A stretch of DNA of 64,000 nt from a virus, in the IMG/VR virus record IMGVR_UViG_3300043788_000114, positions 64,001 to 128,000 of that record. One strand, 5' to 3'. The stretch's first letter is position 1; each line of letters opens with the position of its first letter. A model generated the notes under the pieces. That model did no database searches, was not told the origin of the DNA, and saw only the letters and a list, made by a program, of their open reading frames with translations. Below, piece after piece: positions 3,117-12,467 of the stretch. Both the position numbers and the translations under genes were made by a program.

Positions 3117-3397
3117 TTCGCTGCCGGTCTCGCGATCACGGCATGGAGCGTCACTTCGTCATCGGTAAAAGAATAGAGCACGGTCAAATCCGGCTTATGC
3201 CACGCATGATCCCCGCTTTGCGAATACACCCAAAACCGTCCCTTGAAGTGAGTGCCTTTCTCTGGCTTATGCGCTAGCGTCCATTCCAGCGAACGGTAGG
3301 CCATCTCCCCGCGCGCAAATTCTCTTGTCGCACGGTCCATATCGACAGAAAATTCTCTGTCTTGGACCACCTGTCGCAATTTAGGATTCGTTTCCAA
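3113..3397 (-). CDS. putative RelE/ParE-fold toxin
   Basis: 94 aa, coupled to Panacea gene; C-terminal LTVLYSFTDDEVTL strands. Confidence 0.55.
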   Translation of the reverse strand: METNPKLRQVVQDREFSVDMDRATREFARGEMAYRSLEWTLAHKPEKGTHFKGRFWVYSQSGDHAWHKPDLTVLYSFTDDEVTLHAVIARPAAK

Positions 3398-3917
3398 AGC
3401 GCGAACTTATCACAGAATCGGCCCACGCGCGATCTTCATCTGTGATAGCTCGTGGTGTTGCCATGATAGCAAAGAGAGGAATTGTTTCACCCATTTCAGC
3501 TAGTTTCCACCACTCAGCGTGGGTCGCATCGCTGATAGATGCGGCTGTGTGAGAGCATACCGTGTCAGTCATTTTGTTAATAAACTCCAGATCGTCAGAA
3601 GTGAACAGACTTAGATCTGGCTCTGTTTTAGTTATGTATTCCGTCCGGAAGTAATTGACCACCCTTACGGTTCGAATTTCCAGCGCCCCCTCTTCCACTA
3701 ATTCCTCTAGGAGTGGGAGCATCGCGGCCACAACAGGACCATTCTTTTCCTTAATAAAGCGCGCGCCTGTCAACGCGTGCCCGTTCGTCTTCACGTAGTG
3801 ATTTGTCTCGACGTACCAAATCACCTTGTTAAGTTTCACTGCCCCCAGACGCGCAGGATTCTCCCGGCAACGTGAACACACGTAGTGCACGAGTCTTTTC
3901 AGTTTTGTCCTGTTCAT
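3381..3917 (-). CDS. Panacea (DUF4065/SocA-like) antitoxin
   Basis: KLNKVIWY, TGARFIKEKNGPV, ISDATH..W motifs. Confidence 0.85.
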   Translation of the reverse strand: MNRTKLKRLVHYVCSRCRENPARLGAVKLNKVIWYVETNHYVKTNGHALTGARFIKEKNGPVVAAMLPLLEELVEEGALEIRTVRVVNYFRTEYITKTEPDLSLFTSDDLEFINKMTDTVCSHTAASISDATHAEWWKLAEMGETIPLFAIMATPRAITDEDRAWADSVISSRFGNES

Positions 3918-4220
3918 CTCTTTGCCGCCCTTCCGCGTCCTAGCGAACGTGGCTCCATAAAGGGGGTTTCCCAAGTTGTGCCACGTTTGCTGGACGTGAC
4001 TACAACACGTTTTGCTTGCAGGTCAATTTAGCAGCAGATTTCCACACTTGCACGCAAAAATCAGCTAGCTGCTAATTTGACGCGTCGAGTGGGGAAATAG
4101 CTTCGCCGTTCGTTCGCCCACATGGTTCGCTTTTGGGCCGGGGAAACCTGTCCTCAATTCGACTCCTCTTTTATAATACCCTTTTAAGGGGGATTTCAAG
4201 GGTTATTTCAAGGGGGGTTT

Positions 4221-4808: not shown

Positions 4809-5420
4809 ATGGCTGCAATCGATATGGCTGTGTATATGGCAGAGCGCCGGAAGAATCGGCGCGATAAACTGATTGCGATGTCGGGCGGGAGATGCATCAA
4901 GTGTAATTCAACCGACGATCTCAATTTTGACCACAAAGACCCGAAGGATCGCTCATTCCGATTGACTGGTAAGGCGCTGGATGGTTCGTGGGAAAAGATT
5001 CTTAAAGAGTGGCGAAAATGCCAGTTGCTTTGTAGGGTTTGTCACCTTCGGAAGACAAAAGAAAATGACGAGTACGGCGAACCGCCGAACAAGGGCGTTT
5101 CGAAATGGGGAGAAGTTCTTCCTGAGCACGGATGTGAAGCGGCTTACGCGCATGGTTGCAGATGCGATGAATGCTGTAAAGCGAGATACGAAGCGCGAGT
5201 TCGTCGCGGCGAATTGAAAGGTATCCGTGGACCACGAGGAGCAAATAATCCGAAGGGCGTCATCAAACACGGAACGCGCTCCGGATACCAAGCGGAGTTG
5301 AGACAAGGTTTAACTGCTTGCGATGAATGCAGAAAAGCGAACGCGGAAGAGACGCGGCGGCGCAAGCAAAATGAAAAGTTTGTTCCGAGGGAACCAGACG
5401 GTACGGTAGCGCACTGTTAA
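4809..5420 (+). CDS. HNH endonuclease with Zn-binding C-terminal repeats
   Basis: CIKC..LNFDHKDP...CQLLCRVCH; HG...GCRCDEC. Confidence 0.85.
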   Translation: MAAIDMAVYMAERRKNRRDKLIAMSGGRCIKCNSTDDLNFDHKDPKDRSFRLTGKALDGSWEKILKEWRKCQLLCRVCHLRKTKENDEYGEPPNKGVSKWGEVLPEHGCEAAYAHGCRCDECCKARYEARVRRGELKGIRGPRGANNPKGVIKHGTRSGYQAELRQGLTACDECRKANAEETRRRKQNEKFVPREPDGTVAHC

Positions 5421-5458
5421 TGCGACAATAACAGGTTCGACTCCTGTCCTCGGAGCCA
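5384..5458 (+). tRNA. tRNA-Asn(GTT)
   Basis: Cloverleaf, loop CTGTTAA, GGTTCGA, CCA. Confidence 0.9.
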
Positions 5459-5467
5459 GTTTGAAGT

Positions 5468-5543
5468 TGGGGAGAAGTTCAACGGGTGGAACGCTCGGCT
5501 CTGACCCGAGAGGCAGCAAGTTCGAGACTTGCCTCCCCAGCCA
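5468..5543 (+). tRNA. tRNA-Gln(CTG)
   Basis: Loop CTCTGAC, CCA. Confidence 0.9.
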
Positions 5544-5558
5544 AGTTTGGAGGACCAC

Positions 5559-5730
5559 ATGAAGGATTATCGCGAAACGAAAAGGAACTACGCACGACGG
5601 ATGCGACCTCTCTGAAAGCAAGTTGGCCGGTGCATCTGTTGCGGCGCACGACCGGCTGAGCAAGATCGAGCGAAGTGTACGGTGTGTCTTTGAGCGCCAG
5701 AGACTTTATGCGAAGACACGAAAGAAATAG
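5559..5730 (+). pseudogene. decayed small Zn-finger ORF
   Basis: SD+ATG, in-frame TGA at 5613, CICC...CTVC, apparent frameshift at about 5691. Confidence 0.4.
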
Positions 5731-5801
5731 GGGAATGGCCGAGCGGCTTAGGCGAGTGTCTTTGAAGCACTTTCAGGTGGGTTCAACTCCTACTTCCCCT
5801 G
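5729..5801 (+). tRNA. tRNA-Gln(TTG)
   Basis: Loop CTTTGAA; no encoded CCA. Confidence 0.85.
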
Positions 5802-5802
5802 C

Positions 5803-5878
5803 GCGGGCGTAGTTCAATTGGCAGAACGTCGGAGTGCCACTCCGAAGGTTGCCGGATCGTTGCCGGTCGCCCGCTCCA
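5803..5878 (+). tRNA. tRNA-Gly(GCC)
   Basis: GCGGGCG acceptor, loop GTGCCAC, TCCA. Confidence 0.85.
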
Positions 5879-5969
5879 ATTTGAAAGGGTAGTTGCAATG
5901 GAACACAGGATGATTTTGATGAGCCCGGACTTGAAGGAAGTCCACAGAGTTGTAGTTGTAAGACGCAAG

Positions 5970-6044
5970 GCACCATTAGCTCAACAGGCAGAGCACGGGA
6001 TTCGTACCCCCGAGACTGGCGTTCAAGTCGTCAATGGTGCTCCA
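5970..6044 (+). tRNA. tRNA-Thr(CGT)
   Basis: Loop TTCGTAC, CCA. Confidence 0.85.
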
Positions 6045-6094
6045 CAAGATAGCGAGCCGTCAGAATAGCGACGATTCGTTATGTAAGGCCGCGA

Positions 6095-6171
6095 GGTATG
6101 GTACGGCCCGGTGATGTGAGCCGCGGCGGGGCATGGCAAGGCTTGGTATGGTCAGGTAGGGTGTGGCATGG
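6095..6171 (+). repeat. period-5 GGNNN degenerate tandem repeat
   Basis: 13 of 15 consecutive pentamers start with GG. Confidence 0.75.
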
Positions 6172-6716
6172 GCAGTTTAATGCGTAGATCGGTGCTTCAG
6201 TTGAACGCTTCACTAGAAGCGATTCGCATTATTTCTGCAAAGAGGGCTTTGACTTTGTTGACTAAGGGCAAGGCCCTCACTGAGGTTTCGACGGGGATTG
6301 AGATTTATCCCGGCGTGTTCTTGCCTAGCGTGATTAGGCTTCGGCACTACGCGAGGGTTCCGCATAAGAGGCCGATTCCTTCGAGGAAGAATATCTTTGT
6401 CCGCGATGGGAACCGTTGTCTTTACTGTGGGGCCAAGGGACCGAAGGTTACTCTTGAACTTGAGCATGTTATCCCGAGGTCAAGAGGAGGACAAGGGTCG
6501 TGGGACAACTTGGTTTCGGCGTGCCACGAGTGTAACCAGAAGAAGGGTGATCGTACACCACAGGAAGCTGGAATGACTCTGATTCATCGTCCTTTGCCAG
6601 CGACGGTACACACAAACCGTTTCGTGCTTAAGCAACTTGGGGAAGAAATTTCTGAGTGGAGTCCATTTTTGTGGCAGGACAACAAGGGCGACACTCGCTT
6701 TCAGTTTGTGCATTAG
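6168..6716 (+). CDS. HNH endonuclease (McrA-like)
   Basis: VLQLNAS, PSVIRL, RDGNRCLYCG, EHVIPRSRGG, WDNLVSACHECNQKKG. Confidence 0.92.
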   Translation: MGSLMRRSVLQLNASLEAIRIISAKRALTLLTKGKALTEVSTGIEIYPGVFLPSVIRLRHYARVPHKRPIPSRKNIFVRDGNRCLYCGAKGPKVTLELEHVIPRSRGGQGSWDNLVSACHECNQKKGDRTPQEAGMTLIHRPLPATVHTNRFVLKQLGEEISEWSPFLWQDNKGDTRFQFVH

Positions 6717-6737
6717 GATGGTGATCCTAAGTTTTGA

Positions 6738-6812
6738 GCCTCGCAAGCATTGCCGTCGATGCGCCGGTCCTGTAAATCGGTGAAGCCAGTTAGACTCTGG
6801 CGCGGGGCTCCA
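6738..6812 (+). tRNA. tRNA-Thr(TGT)
   Basis: Loop CCTGTAA (C33), CCA. Confidence 0.8.
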
Positions 6813-6822
6813 TAACTTTCAT

Positions 6823-6898
6823 GGAGCGATTGGCCGAGAGGTAAGGCACCAGATTGTGGCTCTGGTATACGTGGTTTCGAGTACCACATCGCTCCCCA
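6823..6898 (+). tRNA. tRNA-His(GTG)
   Basis: G-1:C73 pair, loop TTGTGGC, CCA. Confidence 0.9.
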
Positions 6899-6906
6899 AT
6901 TTTTAC

Positions 6907-6987
6907 GGGCCGTGGAACTGCATGGGGTGGTTGCCTCTCTTGCAAAGAGGAAATGTCAGGCGAGTTCGATTCTCGCACGGTCCACCA
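6907..6987 (+). tRNA. tRNA-Ala(TGC)
   Basis: G3:U70, loop CTTGCAA, ACCA. Confidence 0.9.
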
Positions 6988-6993
6988 ATTATT

Positions 6994-7239
6994 ATGAAGC
7001 GACCGAAGTGTACGAAAGTCGATTTCATTGTCTGCGGTCGCATCGACGATCCGAGGACGAACAATGCTCCCGGATCGGAACTCAGGAAGTGCTCTGAGTG
7101 TGAAAGTGAAGTGAGGATTCATCCGACAACTATCGACGCGAAGATCAATGTACCGATCCTGTGTTTGCAGTGCGCACTGGCCAAGATGGAGTGTTCGGAA
7201 GAGGAGATGGAAGAGCAGGGAACAAGATTGCAGGTTTGA
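6994..7239 (+). CDS. small Cys-rich hypothetical protein
   Basis: CSEC...CLQC; fills the gap between tRNAs. Confidence 0.6.
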   Translation: MKRPKCTKVDFIVCGRIDDPRTNNAPGSELRKCSECESEVRIHPTTIDAKINVPILCLQCALAKMECSEEEMEEQGTRLQV

Positions 7240-7246
7240 AGATTTC

Positions 7247-7321
7247 GGACTCGTAGCTCCAATGTAGAGCGGCACGTTGAAGCCGTGCGCGTTGCTGGTT
7301 CAAGTCCAGTCGAGTCCACCA
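7247..7321 (+). tRNA. tRNA-Phe(GAA)
   Basis: Loop TTGAAGC, ACCA. Confidence 0.9.
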
Positions 7322-7329
7322 AGTTTTAA

Positions 7330-7403
7330 CAGGGCGGAGCGCGGTCTGGCAGCGCACCAGTTTCGGGAACTGGCGGTCGGAGGTTCAAATCCTCTCGCCC
7401 TGA
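7330..7403 (+). tRNA. tRNA-Pro(CGG)
   Basis: Loop TTCGGGA; abuts next tRNA, no CCA. Confidence 0.88.
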
Positions 7404-7478
7404 CGGGGATTAGCTCAGAGGCAGAGCATTCGCTTTGGGAGCGAAGGGCCGGGATTTCGAAATTCCCATCCCCGACCA
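7404..7478 (+). tRNA. tRNA-Pro(TGG)
   Basis: Loop TTTGGGA, ACCA. Confidence 0.9.
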
Positions 7479-7490
7479 TTTTGAAGATGT

Positions 7491-7566
7491 GGGCTGTTAG
7501 TTCAACTGAAGAGAATATCGGTCTACGAAACCGAAGATGGAGGTTTGAGCCCTCCACGGCCTACCA
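7491..7566 (+). tRNA. tRNA-Arg(ACG)
   Basis: Loop CTACGAA, ACCA. Confidence 0.88.
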
Positions 7567-7587
7567 AAAATAAACTGCGCTTTTCTA

Positions 7588-7616
7588 TTGACGCGGTTTG
7601 GGAATAGCGATAACGT
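7588..7616 (+). promoter_or_regulatory. promoter of Y RNA/Ro60 unit
   Basis: TTGACG-17bp-TAACGT; predicted TSS at the first Y-like RNA. Confidence 0.6.
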
Positions 7617-7620
7617 TGAT

Positions 7621-7692
7621 TTTGTCGATGGTGAAGTTTACGGATACTTCTCTTCCAAAGAAAACCTCTGTGAGCGTTTGTTCCTCGACAAA
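7621..7692 (+). ncRNA. Y-RNA-like 1 (short)
   Basis: Terminal stem TTTGTCGA/TCGACAAA, GGTGAAG...TTGTTC, GATACTTC; upstream of Ro60. Confidence 0.7.
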
Positions 7693-7695
7693 GAT

Positions 7696-7833
7696 TTGCG
7701 GTTGGTGTAGTTTCAGTTACTTCTTAATCAGCAGGTCACGGGTTCGAGTCCCGTCAAGCAGCAATGCTTGTAGCTCAGTTGGTAGAGCAGCCGAGGCGAA
7801 AGCCAGTACCCTGAAGCGCCTGTTCCGCCGCAA
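7696..7833 (+). ncRNA. Y-RNA-like 2 (YrlA-type, permuted tRNA domain)
   Basis: GGTGTAG...CTGTTC stem; T arm, closed acceptor, then D arm TAGCTCAGTTGGTAGAGC. Confidence 0.85.
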
Positions 7834-7839
7834 TAAAGT

Positions 7840-7910
7840 TCTCCGGTAGTGAAGAGGACGGTTACTTCACTCGAAATGAAAAACAACCGTTTTCGCTTGT
7901 TCTCCGGGGA
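7840..7910 (+). ncRNA. Y-RNA-like 3 (short)
   Basis: TCTCCGG/CCGGGGA stem, AGTGAAG...TTGTTC, GTTACTTC. Confidence 0.7.
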
Positions 7911-7918
7911 TTAAGTAT

Positions 7919-8021
7919 GAGCCGTAGTGGTCGTAAGGGTTACTTCTTGGTTCGATTCCAAGGTTGGAAGCAATTCCTACCTGCCGATTGGTCGGCTACC
8001 CCTTGCAAATGTTCTCGGCTC
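7919..8021 (+). ncRNA. Y-RNA-like 4 (YrlA-type)
   Basis: GAGCCG/CGGCTC stem, GTTACTTC, T arm TTGGTTCGATTCCAA, D-like arm, TGTTC. Confidence 0.75.
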
Positions 8022-8028
8022 TCTAAGT

Positions 8029-8158
8029 TCGGGTTGGTGTAGGAAACAGTTACTTCGCCTGTGGAGCGAGTAGTTCGGGTTCGAATCCCGGCGTCTTCTT
8101 CGGAAGATGTAGTGTAATGGCAGCACGCTTACGTCACTGTTCCGTCTGTTCCGCCCGA
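8029..8158 (+). ncRNA. Y-RNA-like 5 (YrlA-type with anticodon arm)
   Basis: GGTGTAG...CTGTTC; anticodon-like arm, T arm, UUCG-capped acceptor, D arm. Confidence 0.85.
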
Positions 8159-8167
8159 TACTACTCA

Positions 8168-8203
8168 GAGAGCCTCTGCTTCGGCAGGGGCTTTTCTATT
8201 TTT
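8168..8203 (+). terminator. intrinsic terminator after Y RNAs
   Basis: AGCCTCTGC-TTCG-GCAGGGGCT-TTTCTATTTTT. Confidence 0.75.
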
Positions 8204-8220
8204 CACCGGGAGGGTGAACG

Positions 8221-9645
8221 ATGCGTACAAACGTAGCAGAAAAGAAGGCGCTCATCTACACGCACGAGGGCGCAGTGGCGGTGTTCATCAACCCCGTCGA
8301 TCAGCTTCGCCGCTCTGTCATGGCGAACATGTTATGGGAGGACGAGTTCTACGAGGATGGCCAGTCCATTGCAAAGCGGATTCAGGAAACGACCGCCGAA
8401 ATCCTCAAGCAGAAGAACGGCGCGCAGACCGTGGCGGACATTGCGTTTGAGGCCCGCACGAAGATGAAGCTGCGTCACGTCCCGTTGCTTCTATTGGTTT
8501 CGCTCATCCGTGCGAAGACCGATCAGACACGGAAGGTTGTGGCGGAAGCCATCGCGCGTGTGGTCCAGCGGCCAGACGAGATGGGTGAATTGATCTCGCT
8601 CTACTGGAAGCTGAATGACAAGCGTGCCATGTTGCCGCACCAGATGAAGATCGGCCTCGCGGCGGCGTTCCAGAAGTTCGATGCCTACTCGCTCGGAAAG
8701 TGGAACTCGGATGCGGCGGCGGTGAAGCTGCGCGACGTCCTGTTCTTGACGCACGCGAAGCCGAAGGATCAGGCACAGGCAGAACTCTGGAAGAAGTTAG
8801 CGGAGAAGACGCTGGAGTCGCCGGATACGTGGGAGGTGGCTCTCAGCGGCGGTGCTGACAAGAAGGAGGCGTTCACTCGTCTGCTCGCCGAGGAAAAGCT
8901 GGGTGCGCTGGCGCTGCTCCGAAATCTGCGGAATATGCAGCAGGCCGGTGTCGACGTTGAGGCGATCCGCAAGGGTCTCGGAACGATGAAGACAGAGCGT
9001 GTTCTTCCCTTCCGCTTCATCACGGCGGCAAAGTACGCTCCGCAGTTGGAGCCTCAGCTTGAGCAGGCCATGTTCCGGTGCCTCGCAAGTCAGGAGAAGT
9101 TGACGGGCAAGACAGTCTTGATCGTCGATTGCTCGGGATCGATGCATGGCGGAATCTCTGCCAAATCCGAACTGGACCGTCTCAGCGCGGCTGCTGCATT
9201 GGCTATGCTGGTGCGTGAGGTCTGCGAGGATGTTGCCGTGTACGCGACGGCGGGTGACGATGGTCGGCGCATCCACGCGACGATGCTGGTTCCTCCGCGT
9301 CGTGGTTTCGGTTTGCGTGATCTGCTTTCCTACGAGAGCACGAGCCGCAAGATCGGCGGAGGTGGAATCTTCTTGAAGCAGGTGATTGAGTACGTCCGCA
9401 AGGAAGAGAAGGACACGGCGGACAGGATCATCGTCATCACCGACGAACAGGACTGCGATCTGGTAAACAAGCCAGCAAGCGCCAAGCCATTCGGGAAGAA
9501 CAACTACCTTATCAACGTGGCTAGCTTCAAGAACGGCATCGGCTACGGAGAGTGGGTCCACATCGACGGCTGGAGTGAGGCGATCTTGGATTACATCCAG
9601 CAGTACGAGCGGTTGCAGGAAACCGGCAATGAGATTTCTGCCTAA
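8221..9645 (+). CDS. rsr: Ro60/TROVE RNA-binding protein
   Basis: THEGA, RPDEMGE, ALLRNLRNM, VLPFRF, vWA DCSGSM, ITDEQ; adjacent Y RNAs. Confidence 0.95.
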   Translation: MRTNVAEKKALIYTHEGAVAVFINPVDQLRRSVMANMLWEDEFYEDGQSIAKRIQETTAEILKQKNGAQTVADIAFEARTKMKLRHVPLLLLVSLIRAKTDQTRKVVAEAIARVVQRPDEMGELISLYWKLNDKRAMLPHQMKIGLAAAFQKFDAYSLGKWNSDAAAVKLRDVLFLTHAKPKDQAQAELWKKLAEKTLESPDTWEVALSGGADKKEAFTRLLAEEKLGALALLRNLRNMQQAGVDVEAIRKGLGTMKTERVLPFRFITAAKYAPQLEPQLEQAMFRCLASQEKLTGKTVLIVDCSGSMHGGISAKSELDRLSAAAALAMLVREVCEDVAVYATAGDDGRRIHATMLVPPRRGFGLRDLLSYESTSRKIGGGGIFLKQVIEYVRKEEKDTADRIIVITDEQDCDLVNKPASAKPFGKNNYLINVASFKNGIGYGEWVHIDGWSEAILDYIQQYERLQETGNEISA

Positions 9646-9665
9646 TTTCCCTTGGTACCATTTGC

Positions 9666-9917
9666 CTAAAGGGCACGGCTCAACACCGTGCCCTTTCTTT
9701 TTGCCTTCTCCAGTCGCTTGCGCGCCGCGTCGTTGCGGATCGCCAAGTTGAGCCCGCTGGTGTAGCTGAGCACGAAGGAGCCACGAGTTCCTTTGAGCCG
9801 GAAGATCATGTATCCCGGCTTGAGTTCCACGATGATCTGCCGCTGGCGTCGCCGGTCGTAGACGGTGTTCTCCGTCTCGACGATGAGTTTGGATTTACGC
9901 TGCGATAGCTTGCTCAT
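9666..9917 (-). CDS. hypothetical protein
   Basis: ORF coupled to upstream gene. Confidence 0.65.
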   Translation of the reverse strand: MSKLSQRKSKLIVETENTVYDRRRQRQIIVELKPGYMIFRLKGTRGSFVLSYTSGLNLAIRNDAARKRLEKAKRKGTVLSRAL

Positions 9918-12392: not shown

Positions 12393-12467
12393 GCGGGTGT
12401 CGTCCAACGGTAGGGCCACAGCCTTCCAAGCTGTTGACGAGGAGTTCGAATCTCCCCACCCGCTCCA
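12393..12467 (+). tRNA. tRNA-Gly(TCC)
   Basis: Loop CTTCCAA, TCCA. Confidence 0.9.

Follow-up and report, generated by a model that had tools for sequence, protein, structure and literature searches.

The window analysed here, 64,000 nucleotides (nt) of phage DNA (bases 64001-128000 of IMG/VR record IMGVR_UViG_3300043788_000114, which is 138.5 kb long and rated complete), carries at 7621-8160 on the + strand five tandem Y-RNA modules, RNA1 to RNA5, upstream of rsr, the gene for the Ro60 ortholog. Our analysis supports the view that hairpins in three of these modules (RNA1, RNA3 and RNA5) have the size, position and base pattern of tRNA anticodon arms, and that these properties are kept in relatives. 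The hairpin itself has already been published for YrlA, the Y RNA with a tRNA-like head; its reading as an anticodon arm, on the basis of covariation and loop statistics, is new. Full-text literature searches found no paper in which the YrlA hairpin is read in this way, with one possibly relevant Annual Review of 2020 lying outside the search.

The first-pass annotation of the window had named the three hairpins, with 7-nt loops of the form CU-NNN-RA, and had described RNA5 as a complete, circularly permuted tRNA closed by UUCG. Both descriptions were confirmed by direct reading (Table 1), and all three hairpins are present in the minimum-free-energy (MFE) folds. In RNA5 the hairpin consists of TCGC (8055-8058), CTGTGGA (8059-8065) and GCGA (8066-8069), with U33 at 8060, the anticodon GUG at 8061-8063 and G37 at 8064, and nt 42-43 (8069-8070) pair with nt 28-27 (8129-8128). 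A 4-nt variable loop separates the hairpin from the T arm, and the D arm has GG in its loop. An anticodon arm of the tRNA type, with 5 bp, a 7-nt loop, U33, a purine at position 37 (R37) and a distance of 4-5 nt to the T arm, is therefore present. A contiguous cloverleaf with an open acceptor end is not, as RNA5 is permuted and capped by UUCG, and the Rfam tRNA model (RF00005) gave no match at its gathering score in 7621-8160. In RNA1 and RNA3, a hairpin of this kind stands on a module without a tRNA body. A tRNA-His called by ARAGORN at 8032-8101 was rejected as an artefact of the permuted order, in which the Ro stem is taken as the acceptor stem. In the genome of the Caulobacter phage CcrColossus, a tRNA-Gln is annotated (GenBank JX100810, 109217-109284; L312:928-995) inside a published YrlA; the RNAs of this phage stand in Table S2 of Chen et al. 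2014 (PMC4201824). Anticodon-bearing Y RNAs give rise to false tRNA calls.

The place of the hairpin in the tRNA-like fold was derived from covariation; here and below, the statistics on relatives ignore phylogeny and shared descent. Alignment A2, the seed set, contains 34 RNA5-type modules, onto which the structure was projected from RNA5. In this alignment 89.1% of the cells were paired, compared with 64.7% in shuffles, and the covariation score of 0.651 (0.193 in shuffles) was reached by 0/500 shuffles, with slid partners scoring at most 0.158. The T stem was paired to 99.4%, and 7/7 acceptor pairs and 3/4 D-stem pairs covaried. The loop-closing pair 31-39 was CG in 17 modules, AU in 12, UA in 2 and GC in 1. 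The pair 42-28, which joins the base after the inner 3-bp stem to the second base behind the D arm, was AU in 18, GC in 8, CG in 3 and otherwise composed in 2. A covariance model was built from A2 and searched against 95 loci outside the seed, which gave 176 matches, all on the rsr strand. For the 143 distinct non-seed matches, pair 42-28 was GC in 48, AU in 21, CG in 13, UA in 7, GU in 3, UG in 2 and other in 9, and pair 43-27 was GC in 63, AU in 10, UA in 10, CG in 8 and other in 8. Natural variants were also found in close relatives of the window: 8069 A>G occurs together with 8129 T>C, in pair 42-28, and the D stem has a compensatory change of 8114 G>C with 8124 C>G. In the RNA1 hairpin of a relative, 7656 C>T falls on anticodon nt 36.

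The covarying pairs 27-43 and 28-42 place the hairpin at the position of the 5-bp anticodon stem of a tRNA. This stem is composite here: 3 bp lie inside the hairpin and 2 bp (27-43 and 28-42) are formed with the strand that follows the D arm, and nt 41 is joined to nt 42 without a linker. A three-way junction results, because the Ro stem in effect interrupts the 5' strand of the anticodon stem between nt 28 and nt 29. We infer that the hairpin would be stacked coaxially where a tRNA has its anticodon arm.

The hairpin recurs beside rsr well beyond the window. In 25 viral loci found through their Rsr proteins, TACTTC occurs 1-5 times within 600 nt upstream of rsr, often followed by a hairpin. 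A scan of viral contigs in which the loop length was left free (TACTTCG, a gap of 7-11 nt, then CGNGNGGTC) gave 120 matches. A T arm came next in 26 of these, and in 24/26 the gap was the one that gives a 7-nt loop; the 94 matches without a T arm were distributed 19/22/9/13/31 over the five gap sizes. For a survey independent of the RNA, 160 additional loci were collected with an Rsr profile. In the 1000 nt upstream of rsr, TACTTC was found 338 times on the rsr strand versus 39 times on the other strand, with 37 expected, and at least one copy was present in 73/78 viral loci and 64/77 genome loci. The Rsr-linked modules, 373 distinct ones, were searched for 7-nt-loop hairpins with stems of 4 bp or more directly after UAC. 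Such hairpins stand in 44 modules with a T arm (10.6 in shuffles), of which 35/44 have U33 and 39/44 have R37, 5 of the 44 hairpins being the T arm itself. The corresponding count for modules without a T arm is 36 (9.2 in shuffles), with U33 in 29/36 and R37 in 32/36. The occurrence of the hairpin therefore exceeds chance. The spacing from the loop to G53 among the 44 modules is tRNA-like, at 15 nt in 19 and 14 nt in 7. It had been stated beforehand that a lack of conservation of loop size and of the CU..RA bases in homologs would speak against an anticodon loop; in the RNA5 type both are conserved, and in the short type of RNA1 and RNA3 the loop is about 4-fold enriched and not universal.

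The loop itself shows a constant frame around a variable triplet. Outside the seed, loops were counted in alignments A4 and A6, which cover 155 Rsr-anchored loci. A 7-nt loop is present in 58/78 modules with the inner stem in these two alignments, and in 88 of the 108 distinct modules with the inner stem in the pooled model-aligned sets. The 58 non-seed 7-nt loops have C32 in 49 cases, U33 in 53, R37 in 53 and A38 in 49. Furthermore, positions 36 and 37 are coupled, G36 being associated with G37 and U36 with A37 (counts 7/5/5/41; Fisher p = 0.0013, uncorrected for shared descent). The same 58 loops display 26 different anticodons. Their composition is skewed, with U36 in 33/58 and GUU (Asn type) the commonest at 15/58, and they mostly match the readers of A-starting codons; shared descent may contribute in part to this skew.

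Close relatives differ in the triplet. The first 88 nt of the CcrColossus and CcrPW modules are identical except for nt 34-35 (CUG versus UAG), and in five close pairs, the only ones available, 4/15 anticodon sites differ compared with 29/689 other sites. The RNA5 orthologs of the nearest relatives show the anticodons GUG, UUG, CGU and ACU. Since Leu- and Ser-type anticodons stand on bodies with a short variable loop and no long variable arm, loops have been exchanged on one scaffold, rather than whole tRNAs captured. Two of the loops match tRNAs of the phage itself in every base, that of RNA1 matching tRNA-Gly(UCC) (12393-12467) and that of RNA3 tRNA-Ser(CGA) (L317:1231-1318, outside the window), and the RNA5 loop has U33-G37 in common with the phage tRNA-His. 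As the phage has about 28 tRNAs, such agreement does not by itself reach significance. That RNA5 is a recent copy of the phage tRNA-His was considered and rejected, as 45/71 bases are identical, no better than in comparison with other tRNAs. The acceptor stems are mostly capped (40 tetraloops, including GCAA in 14 and UUCG in 8). N73-CCA is encoded in 9/189 modules, where 3 are expected, and an encoded CCA was accordingly discarded as a general feature.

Chen et al. 2014 (PMC4201824) describe the hairpin as a less-conserved fourth stem-loop, "V", equated with the variable arm and preceded by a conserved YUAY. In the seed alignment of that paper, the hairpin is present in the YrlA of Mycobacterium smegmatis, Gordonia, Streptosporangium and mycobacteriophage ET08; its stem has 3 bp, its 7-nt loop contains U33 and A37, and two bases are complementary to the two behind the D arm. 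The layout of these four agrees with that of RNA5: Ro stem, YUAY, 3-bp hairpin with a 7-nt loop, two pairing bases, a 5-nt variable loop, T arm, acceptor and D arm. The genes of these four YrlAs adjoin rsr on the same strand, as in the window. The window differs in having five modules, two of which have the hairpin but no tRNA body, and in its 5' motif, GGUGNAG, which is not the exact GNCGAAN0-1G.

The YrlA of Salmonella Typhimurium (RF02553; structure 6CU1) is alike in having a permuted T arm, a closed acceptor and a D arm on a Ro-binding stem. However, it has no hairpin, and the structure paper (bioRxiv 10.1101/312249) presents YrlA without an anticodon loop. At the base of the tRNA-like domain lies a conserved internal loop, which is CUA / UAUG in the Rfam consensus and UACUU / UACGU in the window RNAs. 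The statement in the first-pass annotation that the Ro stem replaces the anticodon arm in YrlA is correct for Salmonella; it is incomplete for M. smegmatis, Gordonia, Streptosporangium and ET08, which carry the hairpin. With RF02553 the tRNA-like cores of RNA2 and RNA5 score 46.5 and 19.9 bits, under the gathering score of 69, and neither the window nor any of 20 related loci (0/20) has a YrlA match at that score. The Rfam model does not cover the clade of the window. Two reviews list solely D, T and acceptor mimicry for YrlA.

Among more distant RNAs, a possible "anticodon arm" with a 5-bp stem has been noted in Yrn1 of Deinococcus radiodurans, but this RNA has a 6-nt loop, another topology and an incomplete D arm, and is thought to have evolved independently. 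The tRNA-like structure of turnip yellow mosaic virus and tmRNA are L-shaped mimics with an equivalent of the anticodon domain; they have free CCA ends and are charged, whereas RNA5 is capped and stands on a Ro60-binding stem. An unpermuted form was seen at L292:1186-1309, upstream of the rsr of a Clostridia contig (metagenome-assembled genome, MAG), where Rfam finds a 124-nt tRNA (44.9 bits). The order is acceptor 5' strand, D arm, loop-closed Ro-type stem, UACUUC, hairpin, T arm and acceptor 3' strand, followed by an encoded CCA; the RNA would have a free, possibly chargeable end.

As for function, we tentatively place first the possibility that the loop is a bait for host anticodon-directed nucleases, acting as a competitive decoy or as a sensor that is cut. 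Nuclease baits, sensors and adaptors had also been proposed in the first-pass annotation. The RNA loop would imitate the anticodon loop of a single tRNA species and, carried by the Ro60 particle, present it to an anticodon-loop-reading protein; the decoy would then compete for the host anticodon nuclease, or the sensor would be cut by it, and the anticodon would be swapped as the target changes. We rank this reading first because the array lies in a phage tRNA island, rtcB follows rsr in the closest relative, the acceptor is capped and unchargeable, and the triplet changes fast. Hughes et al. 2020 (PMC7790460) speculated that Salmonella YrlA's tRNA-like domain could competitively inhibit an anticodon nuclease. 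In a more far-reaching and doubtful version, phage and bacterial Ro60 particles would carry exchangeable "anticodon cartridges", isoacceptor-specific baits that absorb or report nuclease attack and whose triplet is retargeted in an arms race; CUG versus UAG in the near-identical CcrColossus and CcrPW RNAs would be an example.

One rival explanation, itself doubtful, is that the hairpin is a structural arm only, with no reader of the loop: the published V stem-loop would stabilise the junction or the fold, and the tRNA pattern would reflect tRNA descent and the stability of the U-turn. The less-conserved status given to V by Chen et al. agrees with this, as do the lack of the hairpin in many YrlAs and in 2/5 window modules, loop sizes other than 7 in 20/78 modules of A4 and A6, and the free variation of nt 34-36. 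However, length 7, U33, R37 and A38 are kept over wide divergence while the anticodon changes, the coupling of G36 with G37 and of U36 with A37 obeys tRNA rules, the stem of 3+2 bp and the spacing to the T arm are tRNA-like, and modules without a tRNA body to stabilise have the same loop type. A reader other than a nuclease is the next alternative, and in our opinion an unlikely one; the loop would recruit to Ro60, or titrate, an enzyme that charges or modifies tRNA (an aminoacyl-tRNA synthetase in the first case). Ro60 is known to be linked to effectors by Y RNAs, DusA and TruB act on YrlA, and mascRNA, another tRNA-like RNA, binds GlnRS through its anticodon loop (PMC10424219). The coupling of positions 36 and 37 also fits substrates of enzymes that modify position 37. 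On the other hand, the synthetases for Leu, Ser and Ala are not known to read the anticodon, and anticodons of these types are displayed by 18/88 loops; in addition, no synthetase or modifying-enzyme gene is linked to rsr in 17 viral loci.

Two further explanations have little probability. The pre-stacked anticodon might pair with a complementary loop or codon and so steer the Ro60 particle (and PNPase) to a particular RNA. The one point in its favour is the triplet, exposed and variable on a scaffold that is constant; three bases give little specificity, and we consider such a guide very improbable. Still less probable is that the module is a split, chargeable tRNA. M. smegmatis YrlA, which bears the hairpin, undergoes cleavage by RNase P and acquires CCA in vivo, N73-CCA is encoded in the few modules counted above, and the unpermuted RNA of the Clostridia contig has an encoded CCA end. 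Against this, the acceptor is capped by a tetraloop in RNA5 and most relatives, class I bodies bear Leu- or Ser-type anticodons, a long helix is inserted in the anticodon stem, and RNA1 and RNA3 have no tRNA body.

Several observations weigh against the anticodon-arm reading or against the bait proposed on top of it. RNA2 and RNA4 lack an anticodon-like hairpin, and it is missing from the Rfam consensus and from Salmonella YrlA; the hairpin is thus an accessory feature. The nearest relatives of RNA1 and RNA3 have loops of 6 to 11 nt or insertions in the loop region, and in the short class generally the 7-nt loop is enriched, not fixed. For the two invariant U of UACUU, nt 42-43 are possible alternative partners (UA 23, UG 8, other 3; no covariation), and the junction may therefore alternate between this form and 27-43/28-42. 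Alignments A4 and A6 were made by fitting to the model, a procedure that biases them towards the structure. The variation of nt 34-36 could simply mean three unconstrained bases. With regard to nucleases, Salmonella YrlA was not cut by the one studied in PMC7790460, and the source phage has no RtcB, Rnl2-type ligase or CCA-adding enzyme. RtcB adjoins rsr in just 1/17 viral loci examined, and the support for expression consists of only two contigs from one peat RNA library, covering 7909-8084.

The single rtcB belongs to L007, the closest relative of the window (Rsr 81% identical), where the RtcB RNA ligase gene directly follows rsr (L007:4464-5639). This order resembles the Salmonella rsr-yrlBA-rtcBA operon; the phage of the window is unlike it in having no rtcB. 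A conserved protein partner beside rsr was not found among 116 neighbouring open reading frames (ORFs) of the 17 viral loci, which belong to scattered families only (HNH endonucleases, and RtcB once).

Table 1. Features of the Y-RNA array and rsr, in window coordinates
Feature	Position	Strand	Description
RNA1	7621..7693	+	short, YrlB-like; closing stem, 5' GGUGAAG / 3' UGUUCC, AUACUUC, 4-bp hairpin with 7-nt loop; MFE -21.7 kcal/mol, z -2.64
RNA1 anticodon-like hairpin UUCU-CUUCCAA-AGAA	7648..7662	+	TTCT 7648-7651, CTTCCAA 7652-7658, AGAA 7659-7662
RNA2	7696..7833	+	canonical YrlA-type: T arm, closed acceptor, D arm; extra GNRA hairpin on 3' side; YrlA 46.5 bits, model R1 65.4 bits
RNA3	7840..7910	+	short Y-RNA module; model R1 32.4 bits
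RNA3 anticodon-like hairpin UUCA-CUCGAAA-UGAA	7866..7880	+	TTCA 7866-7869, CTCGAAA 7870-7876, TGAA 7877-7880
RNA4	7919..8021	+	T arm directly after UACUUC; degenerate acceptor- and D-like hairpins; fold z -3.23
RNA5	8028..8159	+	YrlA-type holding a complete, circularly permuted, closed tRNA; model R1 116.3 bits (seed member by construction)
RNA5 anticodon arm	8054..8070	+	inner stem 8056-8058/8066-8068; loop CUGUGGA 8059-8065
RNA5 tRNA body	8075..8126	+	T arm 8075-8091; 7-bp acceptor stem capped by UUCG 8092-8109; U8 A9; D arm 8112-8126
Terminator-like hairpin and T run	8168..8205	+	hairpin 8168-8195; between RNA array and rsr
rsr (Ro60 ortholog)	8221..9645	+	TROVE 1.5e-11; VWA_2 1.9e-5

Common to all five modules are a closing stem with the presumed motifs for Ro binding, of the GGUGNAG type on the 5' side and UGUUCC on the 3' side, and the invariant G(A/U)UACUUC. 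In the 64-kb window, GWTACTTC has five matches, all within 7643-8056 on the + strand; 2.28 are expected, and at least five occurred in 6/100 shuffles. The YUAY of YrlA is present as UUAC or AUAC in 5/5 modules, and the word UACUU(C) corresponds to it. The 5' motif is (C/U)GGUNGGUGNAG in the window, with GUCGAUGG in RNA1, and the exact GNCGAAG is found in some relatives (L117 and L132). A permuted tRNA-like domain enclosed by the stem is present in RNA2 and RNA5 and degenerate in RNA4. RNA1 and RNA3 are without it, like YrlB, and fold as long hairpins with the loops CUUCCAA and CUCGAAA. The end of the array lies 62 nt from the ATG of rsr, which is on the same strand. Relatives of the Rsr of the window occur in 72 phage records, and its nearest cellular relatives are from Acidobacteriota MAGs, with 52-65% identity.

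The window contains 18 tRNAs, and ten more together with a permuted tmRNA lie directly upstream of it; the array is therefore located within a tRNA island. The tmRNA, a permuted two-piece form with the tag AEPFALPMAA, was found by ARAGORN at L317:2838-3263, about 1 kb upstream of the window in the same phage, and one of the ten tRNA calls next to it is odd in having a two-base anticodon. At 6907-6987 in the window ARAGORN called an 81-nt tRNA-Ala(tgc), which has no Rfam match at the gathering score, overlaps the ORF at 6856-7239 and may be a tRNA-like oddity. The island is flanked by genes for a protein with a SocA/Panacea domain (antitoxin-like; 3381-3974, - strand) and an HNH endonuclease (6168-6716, + strand). 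HNH genes recur close to rsr in the relatives L007, L008 and L009. A sigma-70 promoter scan of 5200-9800 returned 0 sites, and there are no further copies of the array elsewhere in the phage, outside the window.

In the peat metatranscriptome run X20, two contigs, of 187 nt (6 differences) and 151 nt (4 differences), lie over RNA4 and the 5' half of RNA5, a weak hint that the array is transcribed in a close relative. Across public sequencing runs, the share of sampled words was at most 0.22 in any run.

The present reading differs from that of the papers searched, in which the tRNA-like head of YrlA is described without an anticodon loop. Anticodon loops on Y RNAs explain the false tRNA calls that annotation tools make at these loci. 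Should a large share of these Y RNAs display a specific tRNA's anticodon loop, the field of candidate partners narrows to proteins that read such loops, namely nucleases, modification enzymes and synthetases, and Ro60 would be tied to the conflict between phage and host over tRNA. As the Caulobacter phages CcrColossus and CcrPW and M. smegmatis, all of them cultured, have the feature, it is directly testable.

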